Assembly (NCBI GenBank): GCA_029547025.1
Contig: JAKPQA010000085.1
Coordinates: 6,585-70,584, forward strand
DNA: 64,000 bases
Source: Armatimonadota bacterium
GTDB lineage: Bacteria; Armatimonadota; Zipacnadia; UBA1398; JAKPQA01
Direction: 5' to 3'
Shown here: in pieces, positions 13,910-54,006 of the stretch
Position numbering within the stretch: the first letter of the stretch is position 1
Layout: the number at the start of each line of letters is the position of its first letter
Notes under the pieces: generated by a model
Databases searched by the model: none
What the model saw: the letters and a program-made list of their open reading frames with translations, nothing else
Told to the model about the DNA's origin: nothing
Program-made: the position numbers and the translations under genes

Positions 13910-13964
13910 GAAGCCGCCGCGCATCGGGGACAGGTGCGCGGCGTGGTGGACAGGCGAATGCCTT

Positions 13965-13980: not shown

Positions 13981-14059
13981 AGGCGCGAGGCGCAACCACG
14001 CATCACCCGATCTGCCACTCCTCGTCTGCCTGAACCGCCGATCTTCCGCACTCTAGTGC

Positions 14060-16386: not shown

Positions 16387-16402
16387 GGGAGCCCCGGACC
16401 GC

Positions 16403-18421: not shown

Positions 18422-18438
18422 GGGACGGGTGACCGATC

Positions 18439-18840: not shown

Positions 18841-18853
18841 GACGGATGGCGTG

Positions 18854-20746
<1,893 letters not shown>

Positions 20747-27300: not shown

Positions 27301-27656
27301 CATACGACGGCCCGGCGCACCGCATCGGCTTCGCTCCCATCTGGCAGCCGGAGGACCACTCATCGTTCTTCACGGCAGCGGAGGGGTGGGGCGTGTACCG
27401 TCAGCGTCGCATGCCCGGGTCGCTCCGCGCAGTGCTGGACGTGCGCTTCGGCCGGGTGGCCGTCCGCGAGCTGACACTAGCGCTGCCCGAGGGCGTGAAC
27501 TGCAGCGGAGGCCGGGTTGCGATGGGCGGGAGCGAGGTTCCCGCGACGATTGCGGGCGGTGGCCGTGGCGTGCAAGTCCGTATCGGCAAGGACCGACTGG
27601 TCACCGCAGGTCAGGAGCTGGTGGTGGAACTGGCGTTCGAGGCGCCAGACGGGTAG
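24312..27656 (+). CDS. secreted LamG/ConA-like domain fused to GH116-like (GBA2-type beta-glucosidase/glucosylceramidase) catalytic region
   Basis: There is a signal peptide. The N-terminal ~230 aa is a Laminin_G_3-like module (ELFFRPL...GVWHHVALTHG...LDEVALYSRAL). A GBA2_N-like block (YRGDHLEAIRFCVGGIGAGTIQMDG) and a DUF608-like (alpha/alpha)6 region (GNCTHVWHYAQAH) follow. Confidence 0.55.
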   Translation: MRPELLLTVALTALLLAVVAGRAAGGDYGGAVRRTDGLVAYWPFDGGLEDVVGGALGTPEGMVRFVPGVAGTSGIELDGRGFVTAPPILGADGPESTIELFFRPLPSPSPGNPCLVSIRDEKRARVSLHISADLRRLAVWNGGGAGWVDLAPEADLGEGVWHHVALTHGREGVRLYLDGVAWPGAVGPSGERGLPVQIGAPTATGDFEVFRGALDEVALYSRALTAEEVAAHVDAAGDEWAARRRRMAAVAAAFTEEQARRREAARAARRERVAAMLADPALLERGERRVYRGDHLEAIRFCVGGIGAGTIQMDGQARLAAWQIFNNHTEAELPHSFLAIAAGPAGARRVVRCLQTAPEGPFAAMERLGFQGEYPLAWYEFEDGELPVTVRLEAFSPFIPLRTQDSSIPCAVFRVGVANPGGQSVEVSLIAVQQNAVGYLGHGAVEGCDHVDYGGNRCTVLARDGATVLHMTSDKGPRRPGAGDMALTVLGPAGTGSADVGHLSGLHHALAQGQAPSAPGSAGPTPAGRTLDGAVASSFRLAPGESRTVTFVLAWHFPNAVHGASGSGWDHHGNQYANVWGNALEVAEYVRTELPRLSRETHEFHRAVYDSNLPHWLLDRITSQLAVLRSRTCYWAQDGYFGAWEGCGQSSGCCAGNCTHVWHYAQAHARLFPDLARRMREQSLSYQREDGSLPFRHPSESVAADGELGEILGVWREHLCAADESWLSQAWPRTRAAMEHAIRTWDPDEDGVLAGYQWNTLDCAVGGSTSWLGSLYLAALAASERMAALQGDPQRAERYRAIRNRGAVTQDATLFNGEYYIQLPDPEPRNDYVDGCAIDQLLGEWWATQVGLPTAYPDDHARRALSALIEHNFRPTLAGVTQSPRKFVADEDAGLQMIQWPKGDRPSPCILYGDEIMTGFEYAAAATMVQKGMLREGLMVAKAVSDRYDGRLREGLTPGDTASWGYSGNPFGDDECGKYYGRAMSVWSLLLACQGFSYDGPAHRIGFAPIWQPEDHSSFFTAAEGWGVYRQRRMPGSLRAVLDVRFGRVAVRELTLALPEGVNCSGGRVAMGGSEVPATIAGGGRGVQVRIGKDRLVTAGQELVVELAFEAPDG

Positions 27657-39382: not shown

Positions 39383-41965
39383 TCACCGTGTGCGGAGATG
39401 CACGATTCTCACGTCGCCGGACGGCACGGACAGGCGCACGCGGGTTGAGTGCGCATCAGTCCGAACGTCGAGCGCGGTGCCCGCGACCCACTCGTCGGCG
39501 CCCACACAGGGCTCGTCGAGCTCCACGAGTACGGCGGCCGTCTCCTCTTCCCGGATCCACGGCATTCCACGGGGCTGTTTGTAGGCCCCCCGGTTGTTGA
39601 GCAGGCCAACGACCCAGCCGTCGGCAGCGCGGTTCACCATCCACTGCACGCCGGGGCTGACCCTGACGGGGACAAGTCCACTGGTCACGTGGCGGAGCAG
39701 GTGGTCCATGAGGCCGAGTGGCTCCTGGTTGCTGTCCAGGAGATAGTGCGGGGTCGTAAGCACCACGTGCCCGGCTCCCACGCGGTGATCGGACACCAGG
39801 ACATCGTTCGAGCCGGGGACGGTAACCACGGGGCGGGCGCCGTGCATCTCGGCAACGGCATAATCGAACTCCGCCGAGCGCATGGTGGAGCCGTCGAGAT
39901 GGCAGATGGCCTCAGTGGCGCGACGCACCTCACCGGTCAGGGCGGCCCCAGTCAGCAAGGTCGGGAGGGAGGAGCCCACCTGCCGGGCGTTGGCAACCAG
40001 AGTGCCTCCGGCACGCACGTAGTCGTCGAGCCGCTGGGCCAACGCGCCGTCGATGCGCACCTCGCCGACCAGGATCGCCACGGGGTAGTTGCCGAGTGTG
40101 TGGCATGTGGCGGTCGTCAAGCCGTCGAAGATGTCCCCGTACGGGGTCTCGGTGAGGTACCCTCGCTCGAGCTTCTCCAGGCCGAGCCCTGCGTCCTCCG
40201 GCTCCCAACCAGTTCCGGGTTCGTGCCAAGGGTACACCAGGTTGAAGAAGTGATCCATCATGCGATCGCCGTCGGACAACGGTAGGCGTCCCCAGATTCG
40301 GTGAGGCGCGCAGCCCCGCGGCGACCACCCATGCGCGAAGTCGAGGATCACGGCGACAGGGGTGTAGGGTGTGCCCCGGTCCTTCTCGCGGTCCAGGCGG
40401 AACAGGCGCTCGGCCATCTCGCCCACGGGCGACAAGCGCCACTTCTCCGGCTGACCGGACGTCTCGAAGCCGGCCAGTTGGCGGAGGGCGCTCTCGCGCA
40501 TCACCAGCAACCGGTAGTTCTCGAACCACAACATGTTCGCGCCCGCCAGCCAGGTCGCGTAGCAGAAGCGCTTGTGGAGCATGGGCGAGTGCCCGCTGAA
40601 CATGGCCGCATCGGCTTCGAGGACCTCGGGGACGTAGGAGTAGTCCGTCACGGTGCCGGCGAACCATGAAGAGAGATCGATGCCCCACGGCTTGCCAGAC
40701 TCCCTTCCCGCGCCGCGCGTGAAGGCGATTTGGAGGTTCGTGCAGGGGATGTTCTCGCCGATCTCTGCCACGACCGAGGAGGCACCCCATGCGAACGCGT
40801 GGTGGTGGAAGAAGCGGTAGCCGTCCAGAGCCATAACGGCGCGCTTCACCGGTGTCGTGTCGGCCAGCTCCTCGTACCTCTGTCTCAGGCGTTCGAGTCC
40901 CTCATAGCGGTCGCGGATTGGGCCACCGAACCAGTCGCGCATATCCATGCGTATAAGCCCGTCGCCCCACTCGTTGAGTGGCCCACCGGGCCCGAGCTTC
41001 AGGCCGTAGAACCCAAGAAAGCGATCACGGGCGCTGGCCACGATACGCCGCTGCACACGCTGGGTCTCCGGGTCAAGCGACGGCTCAAGGGTGAACGGTC
41101 TGCGTTCGCCTGCCATGAGGCCCCGGTCGTTGGGCGCGAACAGCCAGGCCGCGTCAGCGAAGACCGGGTGGTCGGCCATACCCCACTCGTGCCATTCATC
41201 AGGACGGTACTCGGCCAGATGCCAGAACGTCCGGCCCGCGATCTCAATCGGCCGCCACGCGTCGGCGATTCTGAAGGCCGTGTCGCGCCCGCCGAGCGGG
41301 CGGCACGCGGGCTCGAGTTCAGCCTCGCGGGCACGGATGCTGATGTTGTCCAGCATGAAGCCCCAGCGGCTGTCCGGTCCCACCGCCGCCGCGTCGAAAC
41401 GGATCCTCCCGCGCACCATGGGGTCGTGTGGGAATGCGGCCCGCCAGCAGATGCGGCCCGTGTCGCGTTCGGCAACGATGATCACCGCCGTGGTGTCCTG
41501 GCAGAAGACGGTGACGTGGTACCACCGGTCATCCTCGGGGGCGAGGCGTGCCCCAGAGCGCCGGCAGTCCCACCGCCCGCCGTAGTGGCTCCATGCGCCA
41601 CCGGAGTACTCGACGTACCAGGCGGCGCCGTCCCACTCCTGCTCCGGCGCACTCTGCGTCACCTGGCACGATACGCAGTTGGCATAGCCTCCCAGGCGCT
41701 CCGCCGCGGGCTGCAGGTAGTCGAACTCGACCACATGGAACGGAGGCACCTCGGCCAGTGAGGTGAGGGTGCATCCACCGCCTATCCCGAGTAGGTGCAG
41801 GACGCCATTCTCGACGCGAACGAACGAGCCCGGCGTCTCGCTGGCGTGCACGTCCCACTTGCTGGCATCGACACCGGAGCCCCCGAAGTCGTCCTCGAGG
41901 ATGGACCGAGCGCCCAATGGGGCACACAGGGTGACCAGGGCCACGACAAGGAAACCAGTGAGCAT
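39383..41965 (-). CDS. secreted ConA/LamG-like (DUF1080-type) domain protein with large uncharacterised C-terminal region (860 aa)
   Basis: The start was set at Met20, giving the signal peptide MLTGFLVVALVTLCAPLGA. The N-terminal block LEDDFGGSGVDASKWDVH...VENGVLHL is typical of ConA-like lectin/glucanase modules. Confidence 0.5.
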   Translation of the reverse strand: MLTGFLVVALVTLCAPLGARSILEDDFGGSGVDASKWDVHASETPGSFVRVENGVLHLLGIGGGCTLTSLAEVPPFHVVEFDYLQPAAERLGGYANCVSCQVTQSAPEQEWDGAAWYVEYSGGAWSHYGGRWDCRRSGARLAPEDDRWYHVTVFCQDTTAVIIVAERDTGRICWRAAFPHDPMVRGRIRFDAAAVGPDSRWGFMLDNISIRAREAELEPACRPLGGRDTAFRIADAWRPIEIAGRTFWHLAEYRPDEWHEWGMADHPVFADAAWLFAPNDRGLMAGERRPFTLEPSLDPETQRVQRRIVASARDRFLGFYGLKLGPGGPLNEWGDGLIRMDMRDWFGGPIRDRYEGLERLRQRYEELADTTPVKRAVMALDGYRFFHHHAFAWGASSVVAEIGENIPCTNLQIAFTRGAGRESGKPWGIDLSSWFAGTVTDYSYVPEVLEADAAMFSGHSPMLHKRFCYATWLAGANMLWFENYRLLVMRESALRQLAGFETSGQPEKWRLSPVGEMAERLFRLDREKDRGTPYTPVAVILDFAHGWSPRGCAPHRIWGRLPLSDGDRMMDHFFNLVYPWHEPGTGWEPEDAGLGLEKLERGYLTETPYGDIFDGLTTATCHTLGNYPVAILVGEVRIDGALAQRLDDYVRAGGTLVANARQVGSSLPTLLTGAALTGEVRRATEAICHLDGSTMRSAEFDYAVAEMHGARPVVTVPGSNDVLVSDHRVGAGHVVLTTPHYLLDSNQEPLGLMDHLLRHVTSGLVPVRVSPGVQWMVNRAADGWVVGLLNNRGAYKQPRGMPWIREEETAAVLVELDEPCVGADEWVAGTALDVRTDAHSTRVRLSVPSGDVRIVHLRTR

Positions 41966-41996
41966 GATGTTGACCACTGATGGTACCTCGGTCCGC

Positions 41997-43793
41997 TCAG
42001 GCGGTGAGAAACTGCACTGCAACGCGGTGACGCCCGATGGGCACCGGGAAGTAGGCCCAGTTGGACGCGCATTCGGTCACGCGTTTCGGGATCACATCCG
42101 CGGATTCGACGAAGCAACGCGCGCCGACGGATTGGCCCAGACACACCCGGATGACGCACCCCGATGGGTCGGGACAGTCGACGACAAACTCGAGCAGGTT
42201 CCCGTCGAAGAGGGCGTCCTCGACCGTAGTCGCGTCGCGGTTCATCCACCACTCGTTGAGTCGATCGCTGCCCATGTATGCCACCGTGGCCCCGAGCTCG
42301 TCGACATAGCGAAGAAGCTCATCGATGGCCTCGCGGCACCCGGGAGAACCGGCGATGTAGACCGGGTGGTAGAACAGGCACATCGTGAGACGACCGGCGA
42401 GGGCCAGATCGACCGCACGACGTACCGCGGCGGGATCGCACTGCTCGTCCTGGTACCCGACTTCGTACCCCGTGATGGCCTCCTGGACGAAGGGCAGGCG
42501 CCGGTTACCGTGGCGCCAGTCGTCCCACACGTGCCGGGGGAAAGCAGTACCGAAAGAGAATCCGGTCACGTTGGTGGGGTTCATCCCGACGGGCTCGGGA
42601 CCGAACCACGAGTTGTCGCCGGTCCCACCCGTGGCCGCGATCCACCGGGCGGGATCGGCCCACCCGCACCATCGGCACCAGTGGTTCACCGAGCACCGCG
42701 AGCTTCGGCCGAATGCCCGCATGAACTGGTCTGCTTGGGCCCGCACATCGTGTTCGGTGAACCCGCACGGATGGCTGAACCCGTCGACAAAGTTGTAGTG
42801 CAGCGCGAGCTCGTGGCCGTTGGCCTCGATGTGAGCGGCCTCCTGGGCGCTCACCGCGAACCCCTCACCGACGGGCATCAGGTTGATGTGATAGGGCAGG
42901 CCCCGGCTCCGCATGAAGTCCGACGCGGGCACCTGATTGCCGGCCTCGCCCTCATCGTCGCCGCCGAAGTAGAACACGGCGTCCGCCACCCGCCCTCCGG
43001 CGGGTGGGAGGGCGTCAACCATGGGGATTGGCCTGAGGCCCAGGATGACCCGGAGGAGTGATTGGAGCACGTCGGTGTACGGCACGGCCACATCGTTGTC
43101 GCCGACAATGCGGGCGTCCATCGCTCGCAGGTAGCCATCGCCATCATAGTCGCGGTCGATCGGTCTTCCCTGGTGGATCGCCCACATCGTCTGGGCGACA
43201 TCGAAGGCAAAATAGCAGGCGTAGCCCGCCCCGACACGCCGGAGCGTAACCCCGGCGTACGGGGTCTCCACAGCGCGCCTGCCACAGGTTGGCGCATCGG
43301 GCGATGGCTCCATCACCGTTGCGAGAGTCTCGACGCCCTCATCGTCAGCAACCACCAGCCGCACGGGGGAAACCACGAGGAGCGGCTGGTCCTCGAACCC
43401 GGCGGGATGCACATCGGAGGCCAAGTTGCAGTCGGTGAGCCGAAGGTAGGCCGCGATGCCAAAGTCGCCTTCGGGCTGCTTCAGGCAGCCCTCCACGCGG
43501 ATGCCGAACAGCTCTTCGAGCCCAACCGTCGCAAAGCCAATGAGTATCCCCCCGGCCCGGACCCATGCTTCCGCGGCTGACGGGACCGTGGGCGAGACGC
43601 CCGGATGGGAGCCGGCCACGACCACAGCATACCCGGCCAGACGGATCAGGTCCCGCGCATCGGCCGGGGCCAGACGTTCGGGCGTGATACCGAGACGCCG
43701 CAGGATCTCCTCCGTGTACACCGGCCAGTAGTTGCGGCCGGCTGCGTTCGCATCGCTGTGCGCCTGCGCGTCGTACACCCACGCGACTCGCAT
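41997..43793 (-). CDS. hypothetical protein with GATase1-like (beta-galactosidase-trimerisation-like) N-domain and polysaccharide-deacetylase-like region
   Basis: The start was set at Met59 (MRVAWVYD...) to avoid a 117-nt overlap with the upstream gene. Assignment is weak and by pattern only (FYFGGDDEGE, HELALHYNF). Confidence 0.35.
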   Translation of the reverse strand: MRVAWVYDAQAHSDANAAGRNYWPVYTEEILRRLGITPERLAPADARDLIRLAGYAVVVAGSHPGVSPTVPSAAEAWVRAGGILIGFATVGLEELFGIRVEGCLKQPEGDFGIAAYLRLTDCNLASDVHPAGFEDQPLLVVSPVRLVVADDEGVETLATVMEPSPDAPTCGRRAVETPYAGVTLRRVGAGYACYFAFDVAQTMWAIHQGRPIDRDYDGDGYLRAMDARIVGDNDVAVPYTDVLQSLLRVILGLRPIPMVDALPPAGGRVADAVFYFGGDDEGEAGNQVPASDFMRSRGLPYHINLMPVGEGFAVSAQEAAHIEANGHELALHYNFVDGFSHPCGFTEHDVRAQADQFMRAFGRSSRCSVNHWCRWCGWADPARWIAATGGTGDNSWFGPEPVGMNPTNVTGFSFGTAFPRHVWDDWRHGNRRLPFVQEAITGYEVGYQDEQCDPAAVRRAVDLALAGRLTMCLFYHPVYIAGSPGCREAIDELLRYVDELGATVAYMGSDRLNEWWMNRDATTVEDALFDGNLLEFVVDCPDPSGCVIRVCLGQSVGARCFVESADVIPKRVTECASNWAYFPVPIGRHRVAVQFLTA

Positions 43794-43849
43794 CGGCCTC
43801 CTGGGGGAGCCAACCAAGGGGCTCACTGCCTCTCGCAACTGGGCTGAAC

Positions 43850-45007
43850 CTATGCGAGCCGCTCGACGGCCCGGCGAAGCCGATCGGCCTGAGCGGCGAC
43901 GGCGTCGTCGGGCTGGAACGGGTAGCCCAGTATGATGTTCGGGAACAGGGCTTCCACCTTGGGGCACAACCCATCCGGGTACTGGTTGCCCGTGCCCTCG
44001 TAGAGTGGGCAGTCCAGCGGGCAGCCCCGCCCGGCGCCCAGCCGTTCGGCGATGAGCGGGTGACGGTAGGCCGGCATGTTCGTATAGCCCATTCCGATGC
44101 CGACCTGCTCCTCCTCGAGCACCCGGGCGAAGTCGTCACGGGGAAGGCCTATCCGCTCGCCGTGGAAGGTAGCGCCCCAGAGGTGGAAACTGTGCTCGGC
44201 CTCGGCCGGCCCTCGCTGGAGGTCGATGAACTCGCAGTCGGCCACCGCAGCATCCAGCATGGCGGCGGCGCGGCGGAGGCCCTCGATGTAGCCCGGCAAG
44301 CGCTCGAGCTGGGCGATGCCGATGGCGGCCACGGGTTCGGACATCCGGTAGTTGTAGTGCATCCCATATGCCACGGACATGAACGTCGGCGCCCCCGCAT
44401 GCAGGTTCAGCTTCCCCGCGAGCTCATCGTTGTCCGTCAGCGCCATACCGCCATCACCCAGACCCATCTGCTTGCTGGCTTGGAAGCTGAAGGACCCGAT
44501 GTCCCCCCACGTGCCGACGCACTTGCCCTTGTACCGTGTCAGCAGAGCATGGGCACAGTCCTCGATGACCACGATGCCATGCCGGTGTGCCACCTCGACG
44601 ATGCGGTCAATCTCGGCAGGTAGACCGCAGACGTGGGTCACGATGAGTGCCTTGGTCCGCTCGGTGATGCGCGCCTCGATGGCGTCGGGATCCATGTTCC
44701 ACGTCACCGGGTTGACGTCCACGAAGACGGGAATGGCGTTCGCATACATCGTGGCCATGGCGCCGAACACGCACACGGGATCGCAGATGACCTCGTCCCC
44801 CGCCCCGGCTCCAGCCGAGATGACGGAGGCATGCAGCACCGACATGGCACAGTTCATGGCCACACCGTGCTTCGCGCCATGGGCCTCAGCGAAAGCCTTC
44901 TGAAAGCGCGGGGTAAGCTGGCCGCCATCGAGGATGGAGAGATGCCCCGACTGCAGCACCTCGCGAACCAGACCGAGGTCTCGGTCATCGAACACTCGAG
45001 TGGGCAT
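43850..45007 (-). CDS. DegT/DnrJ/EryC1/StrS-family PLP-dependent aminotransferase
   Basis: The family N-terminus MPTRVFDDRDLGLVREVLQSGHLS is present, along with the PLP-lysine region SFSFQASKQMGLGDGG. The start was set at the internal Met184 of the computed ORF. Confidence 0.8.
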   Translation of the reverse strand: MPTRVFDDRDLGLVREVLQSGHLSILDGGQLTPRFQKAFAEAHGAKHGVAMNCAMSVLHASVISAGAGAGDEVICDPVCVFGAMATMYANAIPVFVDVNPVTWNMDPDAIEARITERTKALIVTHVCGLPAEIDRIVEVAHRHGIVVIEDCAHALLTRYKGKCVGTWGDIGSFSFQASKQMGLGDGGMALTDNDELAGKLNLHAGAPTFMSVAYGMHYNYRMSEPVAAIGIAQLERLPGYIEGLRRAAAMLDAAVADCEFIDLQRGPAEAEHSFHLWGATFHGERIGLPRDDFARVLEEEQVGIGMGYTNMPAYRHPLIAERLGAGRGCPLDCPLYEGTGNQYPDGLCPKVEALFPNIILGYPFQPDDAVAAQADRLRRAVERLA

Positions 45008-45167: not shown

Positions 45168-48100
45168 ATGCGAAAGGTGGGGCTCGATTTGGTCGGTATC
45201 TGGTTGGGTAGTGCCCTCGTGATCGGGGCGGCGACGCCATCCGCAGCGGGGGAGTCCCGCTCGGACGACGCGGTGGTTCGTTGGACGGACCGGACCATTG
45301 AACTCGAGACACGCGCTGTCCTGCTGCGCCTCGACATGCCAGCCGCCGGTGGCTTGCGCCGGTCGGCGTGGGTGAACCGATCCACGGGCGTGGATGTCGT
45401 TGCGGGCGGGACACAGGCCGACTTCTCCGTCACGGTCGACGGGCAGCTGTTGTCCTCGACCGATGCATCGTTCGTCGTCAAGAGCGTTGCGTGCCAACGC
45501 ACCGAGCACGGTGCGCTGCATGTCACGCTTCGCGTCGCGCATCCCAAAGTGGGCATCGCGCGCCACTATGTGGTTCATCCGGGCATTGGCCTGATCCGGG
45601 GGTGGCTGGAGATCTCCAATGTCGCCAGGACCCCCGTGCGCGTGGGCGAGCCCTCGATCGCTGGAGCGCGACATGGTGGCCGCGAGCTCGACCTGCTCTG
45701 GATGAGCGGTGCTGAACTTCCCGGCGACTCATGGCGGATGCGACGCGAGCCCCTGCGCGGTGCCCGCCGCGTGTTTGACTCATACGATAGCCCGCCCGGG
45801 GCCACGAGTGCGGCTCTCCCGGGCGACGGCGTCGACACGCAGATTCGTCTCAACGATCGCGTGATCTGGCCCGAGGCGGGCTGGGCGCACTCGGCGCACT
45901 CGAACGACCCCGTCAGCCACGATGTGACCGTGGAGCTGCGTCAGGGAGACCGGGTCGAGTTCGTACTGGCTCGGGCAGGCCACATGACATGTGACACCAC
46001 CGAGTGGGACCCCGTCATCGAGTTCGCCGACGGCGAGCGCTTCCAGGCGTCGGCTGGCTTCAGCGACGTTCAGGGAGCGCGGGACTGGTCCTATGAATAT
46101 GAGAGCGATGGCGGCCAGCGCACCCCATGCGTGTATGACCCCGCTCCCGGGCGGTACGGACAGCGCTGGCGCCGGGCCATCGGCGTGATCGAGCCGTTCA
46201 TCTCAGCCACGGAGATGCACCCCGACCCTGAAGGCCGCGCAGTCCGTGTGTTTGCGTCCTCGCGAACGGGGAAGGCTACCATCCGCGGCACCGTTCGGAA
46301 CACGGGCAATGGTGGGCCGGCGGGCCAAGGCTTCCGCTTGGGCACCATGACCTACGTACCATGGTTCTGCGTGATGGATGCCGACACGCGGACAGGAGCC
46401 TATGTCGGGTTCGACTGCATGGCCCATTGGCGGGCCGAGCTCGGCGAGGACGGTTCGGTGGCCGTGTTCCTCGCCGGGTACTCGAGAGAGCTGGCGCCCG
46501 GCGGTACTATCCGGACGCCGTATTCCTTCATGGGGCTGTTCACAGAAGACCTGGACGAGATGGGTCAGGACATCCTCGAGTGGCAGTACCGCCACCTGTG
46601 GGACTACACGCGCGAGCCATGGTTTCCAGCCACTCGCATGCTCGGATACTGGATGAAGGGCACTGCGTGGGGCAGACAGAGCTGGGTCGGTGGCCAGCCG
46701 GACTACGAATCCACCTTCCGCAAGGTGTTCCGGACTGCCGACTTCATGCGCTATGTCGGCGGCGATACGTACCACCGCGACTGGGGCTGGTGGGACCGGG
46801 CGGGCGACTGGAACGGGCCCGACTTCCGCACGACAGGTCGTTACCTGAGAGAGTATGGCATGGGCCAGCTCATCTATGCCTTCATCTACACCGTCGATCC
46901 CGAGTCAAGCGTCGCTCGCGCCCATCCTGAATGGCTGGCAGACCCGAATACGTTGGACCAGTCGATGCCGGAAGTCGTCGACTACCAGGTTGACCTGCTC
47001 GCCAGCTTCTACAAGCGTTGGGGCCCATTCCAGTGGCGAAATGACAGTGTCCCGCTCGGCCGGCGCGACGGGGACGACAGCGTGTTGCTGGGGCAGCAGC
47101 AGGGCCTCATGGAGACTCTGCGTCGGTTCCTCGACACCCACCCCGACTGCGCGTTCCAGGGCGTGAACGGCGGAGGCATGGGGCTCAATTGGGAGTACCT
47201 CGGCTATGCCAGCGGCTTCCAGTTCACGGACGGGCAAGCCGGGCAGCTGGCGAGCTACTACGCGACCTACCTGTTCCCGCCCGACAAGATCAATGACATG
47301 CCCGACATCTGGGATCCCGCCAAGTTTGATCCGGCCACATGGCGATCGCTTCTGTGCACCAATTTCGACATGACCGGCGACACGTTTGACCTCGCGCAAC
47401 TGGAGGGAATCCGCCAGATCGTCGACATCTACCACTACCTGCAGAGCCGCGGAGTCGTGGGGAGATGGGTGCGGGTGTACCATCCCACAGTGACAGGCGA
47501 TGACCCCACCATGTACCTCCAGCGTCTGAGCTGGGACCGGAAGCGGGGCATCATCATCACCAAGCACCGGATCACGGGAGTGGTCGTGGTCCACCCGAAA
47601 GGCCTCGAGCCCTACGAGCGGTATGAGGTCACACTCCAGGAGAGCCCTGAGTCGTTCGTGAGGACCGGGGCCCAGCTCATGGAGGATGGAGTCCGTCTGA
47701 GTGATCCGCCCCCCGGTGAGCTCATTTACCTGAACCTGTCGGATCACCCAGGGAATCGCGTCGACAGGACGCCGCCGGCGACGCCCGGGAGCGTGGCCTC
47801 CAGCGTCGCGCAGCATATGGGGGTCCCGGGCGTTGACCTGCGCTGGGCCCCCGCGGACGATGACTGCTGGCTCAGCTACTACGAGATCGCCCGCGACGGG
47901 AAGATCGTCGGCCGCGTCGCGAAGGGATGCTTCTACTTCGACCATTCCGCCGACGCCGACCCGGCGGCCGTCTACGCCGTCCGAGCGGTTGACGGGGCGG
48001 GCAATGTCTCGGCATGGGCTGCCGCGAAGCCTTGCGCGGGCCCGCGCCGCCAGGTGGTGCGCGCGGTGGGCGGCCAGGGCCTGCGCTTCACGGGGACCTG

Positions 48101-48434
48101 GGAGCCGGAGGCCGATCTGGACCCAATCGGCAACGGGACACTCTTGCGCGCGGCGGCTGCCGGCGCGTCGGCGACTCTATCCTTCACGGGGCGCGGCCTG
48201 GTGATCCACTCGCGCCTCGGAGAGCGGGGAGGGCTGGCCCGAATCGCCATCGACGACGAGGAACCCGTCGTGGTCAGCTGCTACAGCGCCGACGAGATCC
48301 CCCAGTGGCCGCTTTTCGAGCGCGGGTGGGATGCCTCGAGCGAGCACCACGTGCGAATCGAGTGCCTCGGGCAACCCGACGCCCGCGGTACCGGCACTAA
48401 CGTCTGGCTCGACGCGGTGGCGGTGCACCCGTGA
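45168..48434 (+). CDS. large secreted multidomain glycoside-hydrolase-like protein (TIM-barrel-like core, Fn3-like and C-terminal CBM-like domains)
   Basis: Signal peptide MRKVGLDLVGIWLGSALVIGAA. An Asp-rich putative catalytic block YHRDWGWWDRAGDWNG is present. An Fn3-like segment (LRWAPADDDCWLSYYEIARDG...AVYAVRAVDGAGNVS) and a terminal beta-sandwich follow. The family was not determined. Confidence 0.4.
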   Translation: MRKVGLDLVGIWLGSALVIGAATPSAAGESRSDDAVVRWTDRTIELETRAVLLRLDMPAAGGLRRSAWVNRSTGVDVVAGGTQADFSVTVDGQLLSSTDASFVVKSVACQRTEHGALHVTLRVAHPKVGIARHYVVHPGIGLIRGWLEISNVARTPVRVGEPSIAGARHGGRELDLLWMSGAELPGDSWRMRREPLRGARRVFDSYDSPPGATSAALPGDGVDTQIRLNDRVIWPEAGWAHSAHSNDPVSHDVTVELRQGDRVEFVLARAGHMTCDTTEWDPVIEFADGERFQASAGFSDVQGARDWSYEYESDGGQRTPCVYDPAPGRYGQRWRRAIGVIEPFISATEMHPDPEGRAVRVFASSRTGKATIRGTVRNTGNGGPAGQGFRLGTMTYVPWFCVMDADTRTGAYVGFDCMAHWRAELGEDGSVAVFLAGYSRELAPGGTIRTPYSFMGLFTEDLDEMGQDILEWQYRHLWDYTREPWFPATRMLGYWMKGTAWGRQSWVGGQPDYESTFRKVFRTADFMRYVGGDTYHRDWGWWDRAGDWNGPDFRTTGRYLREYGMGQLIYAFIYTVDPESSVARAHPEWLADPNTLDQSMPEVVDYQVDLLASFYKRWGPFQWRNDSVPLGRRDGDDSVLLGQQQGLMETLRRFLDTHPDCAFQGVNGGGMGLNWEYLGYASGFQFTDGQAGQLASYYATYLFPPDKINDMPDIWDPAKFDPATWRSLLCTNFDMTGDTFDLAQLEGIRQIVDIYHYLQSRGVVGRWVRVYHPTVTGDDPTMYLQRLSWDRKRGIIITKHRITGVVVVHPKGLEPYERYEVTLQESPESFVRTGAQLMEDGVRLSDPPPGELIYLNLSDHPGNRVDRTPPATPGSVASSVAQHMGVPGVDLRWAPADDDCWLSYYEIARDGKIVGRVAKGCFYFDHSADADPAAVYAVRAVDGAGNVSAWAAAKPCAGPRRQVVRAVGGQGLRFTGTWEPEADLDPIGNGTLLRAAAAGASATLSFTGRGLVIHSRLGERGGLARIAIDDEEPVVVSCYSADEIPQWPLFERGWDASSEHHVRIECLGQPDARGTGTNVWLDAVAVHP

Positions 48435-48994
48435 AGCACATTGTCGTGGTCGACTTCGCGACGGCATCGTGCATTCTCGGCGCCGTGAAGGATGTCGATG
48501 CGGTGGTGTCCATCGGCGATCCCGGCTCCGCTCCGCCTCCGACGCTCCACCGCGAGGGCCGCCAGATCCTGCGCCTCGAGTTCCACGATGTGGAGCGCGA
48601 CTCGGTGACGGCCGAAGAACTGATTGCCGCGGGTATTCCTTCGGTCGGCTTCACCCCGCCGAGCCGAGAGATGGTCCGTGAGCTGCTCGACTGGTCACCC
48701 AGGCTACTGGCAGGGGAGGGGACCCTCGTGTGTCACTGCCTGTCGGGCCTGTCGCGGAGCACCGCCTGCGCCGCGGTTCTTGCCGCCGTCGACCGCGGAC
48801 CGGGAGGCGAGCTGGCAGCCATGGCGACCGTGGCGAGCCGCACCCAGCACGTTTTTATGCCGAACCGGGCCATCCTGCGGCTTGCGGATGAGCTGCGGGG
48901 GCCAGGCTCACGGCTCCTCGAGGCGTACGACACGTGGCGTACATCCGACGGCGAATGGCTACAGGGGGCGTCGCATGGTTACCGTCCGGGGTAA
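48431..48994 (+). CDS. protein-tyrosine/dual-specificity phosphatase superfamily protein (HCxxGxxRS P-loop)
   Basis: The GTG start overlaps the upstream stop (GTGA). The signature VCHCLSGLSRST matches HC(X5)R(S/T). The product is 187 aa. Confidence 0.6.
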   Translation: MKHIVVVDFATASCILGAVKDVDAVVSIGDPGSAPPPTLHREGRQILRLEFHDVERDSVTAEELIAAGIPSVGFTPPSREMVRELLDWSPRLLAGEGTLVCHCLSGLSRSTACAAVLAAVDRGPGGELAAMATVASRTQHVFMPNRAILRLADELRGPGSRLLEAYDTWRTSDGEWLQGASHGYRPG

Positions 48995-50648
48995 CGCGAT
49001 CGATGTCGAGACACGCACACTGGTGGCCCGTATCGAGAACGGGCTGATCACGCGGCTTCGGAGCAAGGCGGGCGGGACCGAGCGCATTCGGGGCGGCCCG
49101 TGGGACTATTCGGCTCTGCAGTTGGTGTACCCGGGCCAGGGCCCGCTGGACGTGCTCGACCGGCTGGCGGGGCGGGTCTCATGCCATCAGCGGTCGGCAG
49201 GGTGCGCCGAGGTGCGTCTCCACGGGTGGGACGCGGACGGGGTGATCCGTGTCTCGGAAGACGAGGCGACGGGCGACCTCGTCGTCGAGCCCTCGGCGTA
49301 CTCCTCGCGTGCGGGTGTGCTCTCATGCCGATGGCTCGTGCCCGGCATCGCCGCGGATCTGGAGCTGATCGCACCCTTCTTCCAGGGAGTGCGCCTGCCA
49401 CTGAGCGACTCGCTGCTGGAGGGCCGATGGTTCTGGCCGCAGTTGTGGGAGGCCGGCCTGGCGATCCTGCAGGGGCGCGGCGGCGGATTCTGGATCCACT
49501 GCCAGGACTCGCGCTACCGCTACAAGGCGCTCAACATTGAGAAGGCGACACTCGGGCTCGAGACCGAGGCTTACGGCCCGGTCGAGCGCAATCGGGGCGC
49601 AGGCGGGCTGCAGTGGCGAGTCAATGTCTATGAAGGCGAGTGGCGTGTCCCCGCGACCGCCTATCGCGACTGGCTGTGGGAGGCCTACGGCTTGGCGGCC
49701 GAAGAGCGAGCCCGCAAGCCCTGGGTCGGCGACGTCCGTTTCGCGGTGTCGTGGTACGGCGGTGATCCTGAGCTTCTCGATGCGCTCGCCGAACGGCTGA
49801 GTCCCCACCAGGTTCTTCTGCACTACTCCAACTGGCGCACCGACCCCTACGACGAGAACTACCCGACCTATGACCCCTCGCCGGCCGCCTGCGATGTCTT
49901 CGCCAAGGCCCGGAAGATGGGCTTCCATGTCATGCCTCACTGCAACTCGGTCGACATGGACCCCACGCATCCAGCCTATCACTACGTTCGAGACTTCCAG
50001 TACCGAGACGTCCAGACCAAGCGATTGCTCGGCTGGGGCTGGGATCCCGAACACGGCCGAGTACTGGGGGTCCCCGACTCCTACGCCAGCCTCGCCGAGA
50101 ACCGTCGGCGTAAAGTGATGGTGAAGATCCACCCCGGGCTGTCCATGTGGCGCTCGATCCTTGCGGAGCATGTCGGCCAGGCCACTCAGCTTCTGGGCAC
50201 GGATTGCGTCTTTGTCGATGTCACGCTCTGCAGCCACAACCTGGACAACTGCCTGGTCGAGGACGCCACCTCGACCGAGGGCATGAAGCGGCTCATCTCC
50301 GAGATAGCCGGGCTGGGAGGCGGGTTAGCCGTGGGCGGGGAGGGGCGCAACGAGGTCACGATGCAGGGCCTGTCCTTCGCCCAGGCCCATCTCTACCGGA
50401 GCTGGCAGAGCAGCATCGACGGACTCGAACGGGCGGGGCGATGCCCGCTCAATGCCTTCCTGTTCGACCGCCTATGCCGCACCTTCGGGTACAGTGGCCT
50501 GGGCGGACGCACCGAGAACGAGGAGCTTCGGATGGAGGTCCACCACCAGCTCGGCGCCATCCCGACGGTCACCGTGAGCCATGCCGAGGAGATCCGCTCG
50601 CCCAACCGGGCCGTGGCACGAGCCCTCGATCGCGCCCTGGGGTCTTGA
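48975..50648 (+). CDS. hypothetical protein (557 aa), translationally coupled to phosphatase-like gene
   Basis: ATG 48975 lies inside the last 20 nt of the upstream gene. The product is rich in W/Y/H/D blocks (HVMPHCNSVDMDPTHPAYHYVRDFQYRD), which suggests a glycan-binding or hydrolase fold. No family was assigned. Confidence 0.4.
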   Translation: MVTVRGNAIDVETRTLVARIENGLITRLRSKAGGTERIRGGPWDYSALQLVYPGQGPLDVLDRLAGRVSCHQRSAGCAEVRLHGWDADGVIRVSEDEATGDLVVEPSAYSSRAGVLSCRWLVPGIAADLELIAPFFQGVRLPLSDSLLEGRWFWPQLWEAGLAILQGRGGGFWIHCQDSRYRYKALNIEKATLGLETEAYGPVERNRGAGGLQWRVNVYEGEWRVPATAYRDWLWEAYGLAAEERARKPWVGDVRFAVSWYGGDPELLDALAERLSPHQVLLHYSNWRTDPYDENYPTYDPSPAACDVFAKARKMGFHVMPHCNSVDMDPTHPAYHYVRDFQYRDVQTKRLLGWGWDPEHGRVLGVPDSYASLAENRRRKVMVKIHPGLSMWRSILAEHVGQATQLLGTDCVFVDVTLCSHNLDNCLVEDATSTEGMKRLISEIAGLGGGLAVGGEGRNEVTMQGLSFAQAHLYRSWQSSIDGLERAGRCPLNAFLFDRLCRTFGYSGLGGRTENEELRMEVHHQLGAIPTVTVSHAEEIRSPNRAVARALDRALGS

Positions 50649-50657
50649 GCGCACCGA

Positions 50658-51707
50658 CTATCCGCCGTAGAACCACTCCGTGCGGACCCGCGCCACATGA
50701 AGCCCATCGCGGGCGTGGTAGCTCAGGACGCACACGTCCTCGTTCGGCAGGAAGGTCACGCTCTGGTAGCCGTAGTCGTCCTCGGGGTCGCTGGCCAGCT
50801 CTCGAGGGCTCTCCCAGGTCTCTCCTTCATCCTTCGAGATGACCGACACCAGCGGCGTGCGGCGTCCGCCATCGCCCGCCGTGGTCCGAATGAGCAGCAG
50901 GTCACCCGTGCTCGGGATCCGCTTCACCGTTACCGCGCACGCGTTGGCCGAGATGGGCAGCTCCCGGACCAACTCGCCCGCCGACCAGTTCGCGCCCTGG
51001 TCGGCCGAGTACGCCCGGCCCAGGAACCCGTTGTAGGTCCGGAAGACCATCAGCAGGCGGCCGTCCCTGAGCTCCTCGATGTGCGCCTCCTGGGCCTCCA
51101 TGGGGTCCATGTCAACCTCGTTGGCGCTCATGTGCCACGAATAGGCGTTGTCGTCCGAGTGGAACGCGCAGGCCACATAGCCTCCGTGATCGTTCGAGTC
51201 GGGCCACCGCTTCTTCCGCTCGGCCGCGGCGATAACCCGCCCCGAGGCCAGCCGCGTGATCTTGTCGTTGTGCACGATGACGTAGCCGGGGCAGGGGGTC
51301 ATCACGAACTGCTCGCTCCAGGTCTTGCCGTCGTCGGCAGACCGGCGGTAGTAGTTGTGCCCGTAGTAGGGCACGGCCCCGCTGCCGTAGATGTAGGAGA
51401 GCAGCAGATCACCGTTGGCCAAGCGCACGAGACTGGGATGACAGTAGTAGCCCTGAGTCGAGGGCGCGGCCGGGTTGGGCACCAACACCACTTCGTCGCT
51501 CCAGGTCCGTCCTCCGTCCGTCGACGTGCGCGACATGATGCCATCGAGCGTGTAGCACAGGAGGAGCGAGCCGTCGCCAAGCACCTCGATGTCCCCCGGC
51601 ATGCCCCGCGGGCCGAACGGGCCCTTCTCGATCGTCACCACACGAACGTCGGTGAACAGCGCCTCCGGCGCCGCGACCGGGGTGAGCAGCAGCCCCATGC
51701 AGAGCAT
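50658..51707 (-). CDS. secreted BNR-repeat exo-alpha-sialidase-like glycoside hydrolase (GH33-like)
   Basis: Four Asp-boxes are present: STDGGRTWS, SADDGKTWS, SADQGANWS and SKDEGETWE. The start was set at Met51/54, giving the signal peptide MLCMGLLLTPVAAPEA. Confidence 0.6.
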   Translation of the reverse strand: MLCMGLLLTPVAAPEALFTDVRVVTIEKGPFGPRGMPGDIEVLGDGSLLLCYTLDGIMSRTSTDGGRTWSDEVVLVPNPAAPSTQGYYCHPSLVRLANGDLLLSYIYGSGAVPYYGHNYYRRSADDGKTWSEQFVMTPCPGYVIVHNDKITRLASGRVIAAAERKKRWPDSNDHGGYVACAFHSDDNAYSWHMSANEVDMDPMEAQEAHIEELRDGRLLMVFRTYNGFLGRAYSADQGANWSAGELVRELPISANACAVTVKRIPSTGDLLLIRTTAGDGGRRTPLVSVISKDEGETWESPRELASDPEDDYGYQSVTFLPNEDVCVLSYHARDGLHVARVRTEWFYGG

Positions 51708-51843
51708 CAATGGCCCAGCCTCCTCCAGTGTCCGCGTTGGGGTCTGGTTCGCGGGTGCCCCACGGAGGCCCTTCGCGCCTCCGCCCACGCAGGTTGGCGC
51801 TGCCGCGTCCCGGAACAGGCAGATCTGCGGAGGTGAGCTCCCG

Positions 51844-54006
51844 ATGCTGATGCTCATCGTGACGGTGGCCGCTCAGGACGTCCTACCCGCTCAGCCGATC
51901 GGCGACAAGACACTGGTGGCCTGGGTGTCGCCGGCGAGCCTGACCCAGAGCGGGGGAGCCGTCCTGAGCGTCGGGGGTACGAGCAACCTCTTCGATGCCA
52001 TCGTGTTCGGTGAGATCGCGCCCGGGCGCTGGATGGCGGGCAGCAACTTCTTCCTCCGCACAGCGCAAGACCAGGCGGCGTGGCCCGCCGAGACGGCGCA
52101 ACCAGGGACGCTCGTGCAGATCGCTATTGCCTACGAGGGCAAGCGAGTCCACATCTACCGCAACGGCGCTCCATACGCCGAGTACGGGTTTCAGGGCGAT
52201 CCAGCCCCGCTGACGACCGACAGCCCTGTCCTGTTGGGGCTGCGCCATCGCGGAGCGCTGAACGGCTATTTCGCCGGCGGCATCGCGGATGCGCGGATCT
52301 ACGGCTCGGCGCTCAGCCAGGAAACGATTGCCGCCCTGAAGTGCGGGCGAAGAGGCGGCCCGCAGCCGCTGGGTTGGTGGACCTTCGAGGATGACAGCCT
52401 GAGAGACCGTATGGGACGCTACCCTCCGGGACGCCTCGTGGGTGGGGCACGGATTGAGGATGGCCTGCTCCAACTGGATGGGGTGACCGGGTGCATGGTG
52501 GTTCAGCGAGGCAACACGGCGGCACGGGAGACGGAGGGCTGGCCCAGATATCACGTGACAGCGCTGCCCGACGAGGGCGTGGCGCTTCCCTATGACGCCA
52601 ACGGGTGCATATACTGGAAAGGGAAGTACCACCTAATGTACATCTTCCAGCGCCCCGATGGCGGGCACTGCTGGGGTCATCTGTCGAGCCGCGACCTGAT
52701 CCACTGGACCTACCACCCGACAGCCCTCGAGCCAATGCCAGGCGATCCCGACAAGGGAATATTCAGCGGCAATGCATTCATCAATAGAGACGGCGTGCCG
52801 ATGTTGTGCTGGTTCGGCGTAGAGGCCGGGGTGTGTGTCGCAACAGCCCTGGACGATGACCTGGTCCGCTGGCAGAAGCACTCCAGGAACCCGATCATCC
52901 CCATGCCCAAGCCTGGCGACCCGGGGTATGGTCTCTACACCGTCTGGGACCCCTACCTGTGGCTCGAGGGCGACACCTACATGTGCCTGCTTGGCGGTAA
53001 CCGCCTGCCCATCGACCGCGATACGCTCTACCTTTGCACCTCGCCCGATCTGGTGAACTGGACGCCGCGCGGTCCATTCTACGAGGGCGATCCCGCCTGG
53101 CGGCGGTCCGACGAGGATTGCTCGTGCCCCGACTTCTTCCGGCTCGGCGACAAGCATGTGCTCATGTGCATCAGTCACGCCATTGGCGCGCGGATGTACA
53201 TCGGCCGCTTCGGCGGCGATACGTTCACACCCGAACAGCATGTGCGGATGAACTGGCCAGGCGGCATGTTCTTCGCCCCCGAGAGTCTTGAGGACGCCCG
53301 GGGGAGACGCATCTTCTGGGCGTGGGTCACCGATCCGCGTATCGGGCCCGCACAGCAGGCGACGGGCTCGGGTTTCCAGAGTCTGCCCCGCGTTCTGTCC
53401 CTCGGTGCGGATGGCACACCGCGAATCAGGCCGGCTGAGGAGCTGGAACGCCTCCGAGGCCACCACGAGCGGCGGCGCACCATCGAGATCCCTGCCGACG
53501 GCGAAGTCACGCTCGAGGGGATTGCGGGTCAGCATCTCGAACTGGGGCTCGAGATCCAACCGGCTCGGGCCGAACGGGTGGGTCTGAAGGTGCGCTGCTC
53601 GCCGGATGGCGAGGAGCAGACGGCCGTGTGGTGCGACCGGGCCAGCGGCGTCCTGCGGGTCGATGTGTCGAAGTCGACGCTCCGGCCCGACGTGACCTAT
53701 GGCTCGCCGCCATTCACGTCCTACAGCCTCCAGAACGCTACGGACAACCCGAACCCGATCCATCAGTTCGAGGCACCACTGGAGCTTGCCGCCGGCGACC
53801 CCATCCGTCTGCGGGTGTTCATCGATGGGCCCATGATCGAGATCTTCGCCAACGACCGGCAGTGCGTGACGCAGGTTGTGTTCCCCCGGCGGCGTGACAG
53901 CACAGGGATCCGGCTCTGCGCCGTGGGGGGCGGCGCCACCGTCTCGCGGCTCGACGCGTGGACCATGAAACCGCTTGAGTTCGAGGACCGGCGGGCGAGG
54001 CCATAG
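51844..54006 (+). CDS. ConA/LamG-like domain fused to GH32 (fructan/sucrose hydrolase family) beta-propeller + C-terminal beta-sandwich
   Basis: GH32 blocks are present: YDANGCIYWKGKYHLMYIFQ (the NDPNG nucleophile motif), WGHLSSRDLIHWTYHPTAL, FSGNAF and WDP. The 'EC' acid/base region reads DEDCSCPDFF. The start was chosen at 51844 (MLMLIVTVAA...). Confidence 0.7.
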   Translation: MLMLIVTVAAQDVLPAQPIGDKTLVAWVSPASLTQSGGAVLSVGGTSNLFDAIVFGEIAPGRWMAGSNFFLRTAQDQAAWPAETAQPGTLVQIAIAYEGKRVHIYRNGAPYAEYGFQGDPAPLTTDSPVLLGLRHRGALNGYFAGGIADARIYGSALSQETIAALKCGRRGGPQPLGWWTFEDDSLRDRMGRYPPGRLVGGARIEDGLLQLDGVTGCMVVQRGNTAARETEGWPRYHVTALPDEGVALPYDANGCIYWKGKYHLMYIFQRPDGGHCWGHLSSRDLIHWTYHPTALEPMPGDPDKGIFSGNAFINRDGVPMLCWFGVEAGVCVATALDDDLVRWQKHSRNPIIPMPKPGDPGYGLYTVWDPYLWLEGDTYMCLLGGNRLPIDRDTLYLCTSPDLVNWTPRGPFYEGDPAWRRSDEDCSCPDFFRLGDKHVLMCISHAIGARMYIGRFGGDTFTPEQHVRMNWPGGMFFAPESLEDARGRRIFWAWVTDPRIGPAQQATGSGFQSLPRVLSLGADGTPRIRPAEELERLRGHHERRRTIEIPADGEVTLEGIAGQHLELGLEIQPARAERVGLKVRCSPDGEEQTAVWCDRASGVLRVDVSKSTLRPDVTYGSPPFTSYSLQNATDNPNPIHQFEAPLELAAGDPIRLRVFIDGPMIEIFANDRQCVTQVVFPRRRDSTGIRLCAVGGGATVSRLDAWTMKPLEFEDRRARP

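Follow-up and report, generated by a model that had tools for sequence, protein, structure and literature searches.

A dual-specificity-fold phosphatase gene within a lineage-specific carbohydrate-enzyme operon of an Armatimonadota bacterium

Phosphatases with a dual-specificity phosphatase (DSP) catalytic domain are linked to carbohydrate metabolism in laforin, SEX4 and LSF2, which engage glucans via CBM20, CBM48 or dedicated surface sites (PMC9254107). In bacteria, mannan polysaccharide utilization loci of Bacteroides thetaiotaomicron encode BT3783 and BT2630, two phosphatases shown to remove phosphate from phosphorylated forms of sugars and of high-mannose N-glycan (PMC4978465), and Ruminococcus gnavus AgaSK is a glycoside hydrolase family 36 (GH36) alpha-galactosidase fused to a sucrose kinase (PMC7688924). 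Closest in sequence to the protein treated here is an annotated, uncharacterized bacterial DSP-fold family, named ‘predicted protein tyrosine phosphatase’ by JGI and ‘tyrosine phosphatase family protein’ by NCBI; the JGI wording is the title of both COG4551 and COG5350 (PMC2887360). A literature search found no experimentally tested function for any member of this family. Here, we describe a family member encoded in a 64,000-nucleotide (nt) stretch of an Armatimonadota genome (assembly GCA_029547025.1, contig JAKPQA010000085.1, positions 6,585 to 70,584), which we call the window. Its gene overlaps those of a predicted exported GH36-like hydrolase upstream and of a predicted cytoplasmic DUF6259 protein downstream. 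The family is already known, and the window protein is a new and divergent addition to it. As a whole, the observations are best explained, in our tentative view, by an active cytoplasmic Cys phosphomonoesterase that was recruited in one lineage and may dephosphorylate an imported sugar or oligosaccharide.

The phosphatase open reading frame (ORF) is a real gene, and a chance ORF is ruled out, because its third-position G+C content (GC3, 0.79) is like that of its neighbours, it has significant homologues (E-values of 2.3e-9 and 1.5e-6 at 31–36 % identity among 5.8 billion proteins), and its ratio of nonsynonymous to synonymous substitution rates (dN/dS) is 0.108, measured across ~0.7 synonymous substitutions per site against the orthologue in JGI metagenome contig L001. 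The flanking genes have dN/dS values of 0.143 and 0.108 in the same comparison, and window G+C content is 67.7 %. The translation, MKHIVVVDF...VCHCLSGLSRST...YRPG, with the motif VCHCLSGLSRST at residues 100–111, is 100 % identical to NCBI hypothetical protein PLD23_14985 from an Armatimonadota metagenome-assembled genome (MAG). A first-pass annotation made from the nucleotide sequence had described a 187-aa protein with an HC(X5)R(S/T) P-loop, a 4-nt GTGA overlap upstream and a 20-nt overlap downstream; the P-loop (HCLSGLSRST) and both overlaps can be read directly from the sequence. The upstream stop codon TGA (48432–48434) shares its three bases with the start of the phosphatase gene at its GTG, which gives the 4-nt overlap, and the phosphatase stop codon TAA occupies 48992–48994, beyond the downstream ATG at 48975. 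A Shine–Dalgarno-like AGGGGG lies 5′ of that ATG at ~48962–48967. The upstream junction GCACCCGTGAAGCAC, which includes GTGA, is identical in L001, where the phosphatase is 87 % identical; the downstream overlap is not kept there and a 10-nt spacer stands in its place, while the GGGGG before the downstream ATG and the MV(A/T)VR protein start are both kept. Searches of the window with tblastn detected no paralogues of the three operon proteins.

The phosphatase family is large. An exhaustive profile search yielded 5901 cluster representatives at E<=1e-3, of which 1906 also reach <=1e-10, and most are stand-alone proteins of 155–200 aa. Against the family profile, which contains its own sequence, the window ORF has an E-value of 9e-45. 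Alignments that took in 132, 71 and 120 members have invariant or near-invariant positions at S27, LxLxFxD53, H102-C103-x-A-G106-x-S108-R109-S110-x-A112, P144-N145, D153 and L156, and the window phosphatase keeps all the numbered ones (S27, F51xD53, H102C103, G106, S108R109S110, A112, P144N145, D153 and L156). D53 is invariant in 132 of 132 and 120 of 120 members, and C103, G106, R109 and S110 are invariant across 120–132 relatives. The HC(X5)R(S/T) signature required of the Cys-based protein tyrosine phosphatase (PTP) superfamily is present as HCLSGLSRS at residues 102–110. Domain libraries capture the family poorly: Pfam returned only a sub-threshold match for the window protein, to the polymorphic-toxin DSP-PTPase model Tc-R-P (PF22785; 18.5 bits, E 0.003, residues 64–116, below the 27-bit cut-off), and NCBIfam returned none. 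Other family members have sub-threshold matches to DSPc, Tc-R-P or Y_phosphatase, with no Pfam or NCBIfam model fitting the family at threshold, and relatives of the phosphatase match PTP-SAK and PTP-NADK weakly. Among members scanned for additional domains, the only recurrent fusion partner consists of HEAT or PBS-lyase HEAT-like repeats. The HEAT-fused members, a sizeable subgroup that includes P0012, P0017, P0018, P0020, P0028, P0058, P0073, P0100, P0112, P0146 and others, are 290–640 aa long and have a C-terminal DSP domain, with HEAT repeats making up the rest of the protein.

Structural comparison places the window protein among DSP-fold enzymes. The best matches of the family profile in the PDB are DUSP15 (7.5e-11) and DUSP22 (6e-10), and this profile aligns D53 with the Asp of ‘LRIPVAD’ in DUSP15 and ‘LCIPAAD’ in DUSP22. 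We take this aligned residue to be their general acid, D57. An AlphaFold2 (AF2) model built on 120 homologues has a mean predicted local distance difference test score (pLDDT) of 91.2 and a predicted template modelling score (pTM) of 0.87, and positions the P-loop between a strand (98–103) and a helix (109–122), which is the canonical DSP arrangement. Top Foldseek matches of this model in the PDB are DSP-fold phosphatases only, with DUSP22 first (8e-6); others are DUSP15, Slingshot-2 (SSH2), DUSP28, DUSP14, PTPMT1, MKPs, VHR, PRL-1 and Tk-PTP, all with a Foldseek probability of 1.00 and TM-scores of ~0.5–0.6. The first-pass annotation had proposed structure prediction as a way to place the protein among DSPs and to locate a general-acid Asp. 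The model and its matches provide that placement, and family-wide invariance together with alignment to the DUSP15/DUSP22 D-loop Asp makes D53 the putative general acid. The annotation had also noted that the protein has no signal peptide, which agrees with the model because the N-terminal residues belong to the fold core: residues 3–8 form strand 1 and residues 9–18 form helix 1, with pLDDT values of 95–96. Conserved residues and predicted fold together indicate that the window protein is very probably an active DSP-fold phosphatase of this bacterial family. By analogy with PTP/DSP enzymology, the C103 thiolate would attack the phosphate ester, with phosphate bound by R109 and P-loop backbone amides and the leaving group protonated by D53; the resulting phosphocysteine intermediate would be hydrolysed with help from S110.

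Within its family, the window protein is unusual around the active site. The D-loop Asp and the catalytic Cys are spaced 50 residues apart, compared with a family mode of 36 and a bulk range of 32–43, and spacings of at least 50 occur in only 8 of ~250 family sequences. The D-loop is ~14 residues longer than usual; alignment columns of the extension (residues ~58–73) are gaps in 97–128 of 132 members, and the AF2 model has a helix there, after the Asp, at residues 61–66 (pLDDT ~82). At the second residue after the catalytic Cys (C+2), Ser occurs in only 2 of 249 members, which are the window protein and its 87 % identical relative, while Ala occurs in 224. The spacing of 50 and Ser at C+2 recur together only in that relative. 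Identity to any member outside its own lineage is at most ~40 %. Judged by its sequence, the window protein is nonetheless a divergent member of the family and not an outsider, because D-to-C spacing and Ala at C+2 are typical of the family rather than defining for it. The same departures could be taken as signs of a catalytically dead pseudophosphatase, in which Ser replaces a near-universal Ala and D53 might not reach the active site from an unusually long D-loop, or the ORF could have been mis-called. All invariant catalytic residues are intact and the model is confident, however, and purifying selection, neighbour-like codon usage and significant homologues argue against both possibilities, which we consider very unlikely.

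The protein encoded upstream is 100 % identical to NCBI protein P0265, for which the NCBI start is the ATG at 45168. Flanking proteins of 1089 and 557 aa had been reported in the first-pass annotation; the downstream length stands, and the upstream protein has 1088 aa when counted from the NCBI start. The upstream protein has no Pfam match at threshold. Its homologues match Glyco_hydro_36C (32 of 33, best 3.3e-5), Glyco_hydro_36N (13 of 33) and Melibiase (5 of 33, best 3.1e-5), all weakly and below threshold. Its AF2 model (pLDDT 84.6) matches GH36 alpha-galactosidases in the PDB with E-values of 6e-24 to 1e-19 and TMt values of 0.64–0.72, over alignments of ~900–960 columns at ~12 % identity, and the family profile matches the GH36 alpha-galactosidases 8k1a (7e-7) and 6phw (1e-4) as well as an FN3 domain (2.7e-11). 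The predicted layout runs from a signal-like N-terminal helix through beta-sandwich domains, a TIM barrel (~460–760) and FN3 (~870–950) to a C-terminal beta-sandwich. By its Foldseek matches, the model has the three-domain GH36 architecture, in which a (beta/alpha)8 barrel lies between an N-terminal beta-sandwich and a C-terminal beta-domain. Model and profile identify the protein as a distant GH36-like hydrolase that is extended by an FN3 domain and a C-terminal beta-sandwich. Its N-terminus has a 15–20-residue hydrophobic segment, MRKVGLDLVGIWLGSALVIGAATPSAAG, modelled as a low-confidence helix (6–20) that precedes the folded domain. A similar segment, poorly conserved in sequence, occurs in almost every homologue checked, immediately before a conserved RSEDAVVRW. 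These features are consistent with the predicted signal peptide that had been noted in the first-pass annotation. The upstream family is rare: a set of 5.8 billion proteins yielded ~35 clusters (90 % identity). At two homologue loci (L011 and L012), its neighbours are a Lactamase_B_3 gene and Melibiase genes of canonical GH36 type. On a Chthonomonadales contig (L007) with a 53 % identical homologue, a type II CRISPR-Cas module (Cas9, Cas1 and Cas2; 13869–18180) lies ~2.6 kb downstream.

The DUF6259 protein has no N-terminal hydrophobic segment, and no paper naming DUF6259 was found in a literature search. Its orthologues occur at 80 metagenome loci with 51–100 % identity. Orthologues with 51–69 % identity recur next to a Sugar_tr major facilitator superfamily transporter gene, paired URO-D-like genes and a gene of the GlcNAc-2-epimerase family (e.g., L084, L102, L117 and L118), or next to GH20 and GH88 genes (L067 and L072). 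This recurrence in sugar-utilization loci suggests that DUF6259 proteins are cytoplasmic enzymes of sugar catabolism. The GH36-like and DUF6259 families have no detectable relationship by hhalign (probability 0.3 %), and single-sequence PDB searches of both flanking proteins were uninformative apart from an FN3 match. ‘Carbohydrate-active enzyme (CAZyme) operon’ is a fair description of the three genes because the upstream product is GH36-like and DUF6259 orthologues occur in sugar-utilization loci; the first-pass placement of the phosphatase within a glycoside-hydrolase operon thus holds. The three genes are probably co-transcribed with translational coupling. No promoter-like sites were detected within the operon and the sole terminator-like match is at chance level. 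We are confident, if slightly less so than about catalytic activity, that this is a real three-gene operon specific to its lineage.

The arrangement has a narrow distribution. The gene triple with its GTGA junction also occurs in contigs L001–L004 from several JGI metagenomes, in a relative with flanking proteins that are 83 % and 89 % identical to those of the window, and in a 100 % identical contig (L062). JGI samples with this organism include 3300022664 and 3300026163. Conservation of the neighbourhood in other genomes had been proposed as a check in the first-pass annotation, and it did not emerge: the triple was found only in the window organism and in this 83–89 % identical relative. 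Around GH36-like homologues with 42–65 % identity, hmmsearch of six-frame ORFs detected no phosphatase-family ORF within +/-8 kb at any of 9 loci, where the genes that lie downstream are mutually unrelated. Likewise, the phosphatase is absent from 79 of 80 DUF6259 orthologue loci (all but L062), of which 60 have at least 700 nt of upstream sequence, enough to reveal it. A third comparison covered 46 phosphatase-family loci in genomes of Acidobacteriota, Verrucomicrobiota and Proteobacteria, found with a 4-sequence alignment as query; no homologue of any of the nine genes around the window phosphatase occurs in them. Because the triple is absent from homologue loci of all three genes, the embedding of the phosphatase in a CAZyme operon is a recent, lineage-specific recruitment and not a property of the family. 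That the phosphatase might be a domain split off from an adjacent gene was considered and rejected, as no homologue locus of either neighbour has a fused or adjacent phosphatase domain.

Contexts of other family members are diverse. Most family genes in the 46 loci are flanked by opposite-strand genes or by gaps >100 nt, no neighbour is common across phyla, and partners are lineage-specific only: SDR, radical-SAM, GH1, a ComB-like gene and an ORF that bears an Hpt-like motif. The Hpt-like motif, AHKIKGSA, occurs in an ORF that adjoins the family gene in five Verrucomicrobiota loci. In six gammaproteobacterial MAGs (L050, L053, L054, L055, L057 and L058), the family gene is followed by a ~250-aa ComB-like gene, a homologue of 2-phosphosulfolactate phosphatase (PDB 2yyv, E 1.2e-13), at a distance of -4 to +53 nt in the four of these six loci where it was measured, so that two phosphatase genes form a pair. 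Elsewhere, member P0004 (L005, 399–2765) lies directly upstream of a type VI secretion system (T6SS) Hcp gene and a NADase_transloc gene, and the gene of the tandem-domain member P0006 (L142, 4539–8020) shares 4 nt with that of a DEAD_2 (DinG/XPD-like) helicase. At L143 (6378–8074), two DSP-type genes lie 700 nt apart with a DUF2059 gene between them; the second is of PTP-SAK type and a thiolase gene is nearby.

Such heterogeneity could indicate that the window gene is a hitch-hiker in a plastic glycan island and that its substrate lies elsewhere, for example a nucleotide or NAD derivative, a lipid (phosphatidylglycerophosphate or phosphoinositide) or RNA ends. Family contexts that range from T6SS Hcp/NADase_transloc through a DinG-like helicase to thiolase/DUF2059/PTP-SAK-type neighbours, with most members alone, fit this explanation, as do weak Pfam matches to Tc-R-P and, in relatives, to PTP-SAK and PTP-NADK, the presence of the lipid phosphatase PTPMT1 among the fold matches, and a gene order around both flanking families that varies strongly between genomes. 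It is opposed by retention of the gene with a conserved GTGA junction and a dN/dS of 0.11 over the divergence from L001. The Tc-R-P match also falls below the Pfam cut-off, PADLOC gave no defence-system match for the phosphatase, three relatives or the DUF6259 protein, and genes for toxins, immunity or secretion are absent from its surroundings in the window. We regard hitch-hiking as rather unlikely.

On our preferred explanation, a recruited sugar or oligosaccharide phosphatase, the gene was inserted between the GH36-like and DUF6259 genes in one Armatimonadota lineage and has been kept under purifying selection since. The preferred substrate would be a soluble phosphorylated sugar or oligosaccharide from this pathway, reached after cytoplasmic import, to which the enzyme would have adapted through its longer D-loop and the exchange of Ala for Ser in its P-loop. 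Three features favour a carbohydrate-derived phosphoester linked to the pathway: the gene belongs to an operon with overlapping codons, selection on it has been maintained, and the surroundings of its active site are altered. We consider such a substrate the likeliest of the candidates but still less probable than not. The ComB-like pairing in six gammaproteobacterial loci lends weak support in that family members may handle small metabolites. Several results weigh against a carbohydrate substrate, first among them the limited distribution of the triple and the lack of the phosphatase, or of its window neighbours, at the three sets of homologue loci. As the neighbourhood is not conserved, the glycan or sugar phosphatase role suggested in the first-pass annotation loses its main expected support and stands as a candidate role. 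In addition, no CBM (carbohydrate-binding module) was detected in the phosphatase by Pfam or in the model, which consists of the DSP core and a C-terminal helix, and neither a sugar kinase nor an enzyme specific for phosphorylated glycans was identified in the window. In catabolism, sugar phosphates are normally retained and not lost to hydrolysis, and Price et al. (2006) reportedly found that new, lineage-specific operons often combine genes of unrelated function. The HEAT fusions also count here, since a protein-interaction module suggests that at least some family members act on proteins.

A rival worth weighing is a regulatory phosphatase, co-expressed with the operon, that removes phosphate from phosphotyrosine and/or phosphoserine/phosphothreonine in a cytoplasmic protein such as the DUF6259 enzyme, a transporter or a glycan-utilization regulator. 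The nearest solved structures are the protein-directed atypical DUSPs DUSP22 and DUSP15, the best single-sequence PDB matches are the protein tyrosine phosphatases Tk-PTP and ShufPTP (E 2-4e-3), many family members are fused to HEAT repeats, which are a protein-binding scaffold, the Hpt-like ORF adjoins family genes in Verrucomicrobiota, and several sensor kinases are encoded in the window. DSP-fold likeness does not, however, separate protein from non-protein substrates, and a place inside a catabolic operon with overlapping codons is unusual for a signalling enzyme. No Ser/Thr/Tyr kinase or bacterial tyrosine (BY) kinase was found in the window or beside the family members examined. Ordinary tyrosine-phosphatase signalling had been expected to reveal itself through a non-conserved neighbourhood with homologues beside kinases; the former was seen and the latter was not. 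Regulation of the neighbouring hydrolase, which had also been suggested, is excluded for the mature upstream enzyme, since the GH36-like protein cannot be a target once it is exported and the phosphatase is cytoplasmic. On balance, a protein substrate appears somewhat unlikely.

If the substrate is a carbohydrate phosphate, DSP-type sugar dephosphorylation would reach beyond the starch and glycogen metabolism of eukaryotes into the breakdown of glycans by bacteria. The strongest version, that this is the first DSP-fold phosphatase from bacteria to be specialised for a phosphorylated carbohydrate, working with an unclassified GH36-like exo-enzyme and a DUF6259 enzyme on a phosphorylated, possibly alpha-galactoside-type, glycan, is improbable, but it would provide a function for three unannotated families at once. 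The locus is a compact three-gene test case in which all three products are uncharacterized, and confirmation of a sugar phosphatase would give experimental entry into a phosphatase family with thousands of uncharacterized members. Because the arrangement is confined to one lineage, the locus alone does not predict the function of the wider family.

The operon is bounded by a divergent gene on its 5′ side and a convergent gene on its 3′ side (Table 1), and both boundary genes occupy the same positions in L001–L004. In those contigs the 5′ gene is a 385-aa gene, and in the window the 3′ boundary marked by the BNR_2 gene lies 10 nt past the DUF6259 stop codon.

Table 1. Features of the phosphatase operon and its boundary genes (coordinates refer to the window).
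Feature	Position	Strand	Basis or remark
DegT/DnrJ/EryC1-type aminotransferase gene, divergent, 5′ boundary	43850..45007	-	Pfam PF01041, 1.6e-72
First operon gene, GH36-like, 1088 aa, predicted exported	45168..48434	+	ORF, fold and profile
GTGA start/stop overlap of GH36-like and phosphatase genes	48431..48434	+	Sequence
DSP-fold Cys phosphatase gene, predicted cytoplasmic	48431..48994	+	GTG start, 187 aa
Codon of D53, putative general acid, in LRLEFHD	48587..48589	+	Sequence, invariance in family
D-loop extension, residues ~58–73, with short predicted helix 61–66	48602..48649	+	Alignment gaps, AF2 model
P-loop H102-C103-L-S-G-L-S-R109-S110	48734..48760	+	Sequence; predicted nucleophile Cys, phosphate-binding Arg and hydrolysis-assisting Ser
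20-nt overlap of phosphatase 3′ end and DUF6259 start	48975..48994	+	Sequence
Third operon gene, DUF6259, 557 aa, predicted cytoplasmic	48975..50648	+	Pfam PF19773, 9.9e-11, above cut-off
BNR_2 (sialidase-like beta-propeller) gene, convergent, 3′ boundary	50658..51857	-	Pfam PF13088, 5.3e-26

The wider window also carries GH38, GH42-like, GH116+LamG, GH32+LamG and DUF2961 genes; Rfam, tRNA, promoter and terminator scans of the window returned nothing relevant. The GH116-type and GH32-type hydrolases (24312–27656 and 51589–54006) each have an N-terminal Laminin_G_3 (concanavalin-like) domain, and L001 has an extra GH89 (NAGLU) gene between its BNR and GH32 genes that the window does not have. 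Two large minus-strand ORFs of 879 and 656 aa (39383–43967) lie downstream of the DegT gene. They have no Pfam match at E<0.1, are kept in position in L001–L003 (864–869 aa and 598–609 aa) and may belong to the same glycan-utilization island. Farther away, an [FeFe]-hydrogenase cluster (14060–20746) contains genes for a HydA-like large subunit (14060–15847), a NuoE-like 2Fe-2S thioredoxin-like protein (15847–16386) and a NuoF-like flavoprotein (18851–20746). The latter two genes flank one for a Cache/HAMP sensor histidine kinase (16286–18421), and beyond the cluster comes a response-regulator/histidine-kinase hybrid (20858–22420).

Among known systems, the bacterial ‘predicted protein tyrosine phosphatase’ group is nearest, with the same length class (~160–190 aa) and the same invariant positions as the window protein. 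As to context, the window gene overlaps both of its neighbours in a CAZyme operon; most other family genes stand alone or have unrelated surroundings. DUSP22/JSP-1 and DUSP15/VHY have, like the window protein, an HCxxGxSRS P-loop, an aligned D-loop Asp and a single domain of ~150–190 aa. Identity to them is only 17–21 %, with the modest TM-scores given above, and the window protein departs from them in its extra C-terminal helix (162–180), its long D-loop and its origin in a bacterial operon. Archaeal Tk-PTP and the derived ShufPTP are of similar size and have in common with the window protein the motif ‘FT(A/P)PS...HC(M/L)xGLxRS’. Their general-acid Asp (in PIPDFTAPS) aligns with window Gly73, while the window family conserves D53 farther upstream.

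Laforin, SEX4 and LSF2 have a DSP catalytic domain and CX5R chemistry in common with the window protein, and they formed the analogy on which the first-pass annotation built its candidate glycan phosphatase. Their P-loops, CNAGVGR, CTAGMGR and CSAGLGR, follow a pattern of C-hydrophilic-A-G-aliphatic-G-R. The window P-loop, CLSGLSR, departs from that pattern, and the fifth residue after the catalytic Cys is Ser rather than Gly in 236 of 249 family members. Together with the missing CBM and the absence of all three enzymes from the top 50 Foldseek PDB matches and the top 60 profile matches, this leaves no specific resemblance to glucan phosphatases. Those enzymes act on insoluble polyglucans and are located in the same compartment as their substrate; here, the hydrolase is predicted to be exported and the phosphatase is not, for which reason laforin/SEX4-type action of both proteins on the same polymer was rejected as implausible. 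With the two in different compartments, a carbohydrate substrate, if there is one, should be a soluble phosphorylated sugar or oligosaccharide that is imported to the cytoplasm; in the strongest version considered above, the enzyme would be a bacterial counterpart of laforin/SEX4 acting on soluble oligosaccharides.

The Bacteroides enzymes BT3783 and BT2630 resemble the window case in that phosphatase genes lie inside glycan-utilization loci. They are Mg2+-dependent with a fold that resembles tyrosyl-DNA phosphodiesterase, whereas the window protein is a Cys-based DSP (PMC4978465). BT3783 was expressed from residue 27, which suggests a signal peptide and a location that is probably not cytoplasmic, unlike that of the window protein (PMC4978465). 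For the upstream hydrolase, the galactosidase domain of AgaSK (2yfn) is among the top fold matches. AgaSK combines its GH36 domain with a kinase, by fusion, so that both activities reside in one cytoplasmic protein, whereas the window pairs its GH36-like protein with a phosphatase in an operon; by analogy, AgaSK is a precedent for coupling GH36 enzymes to phospho-sugar chemistry.

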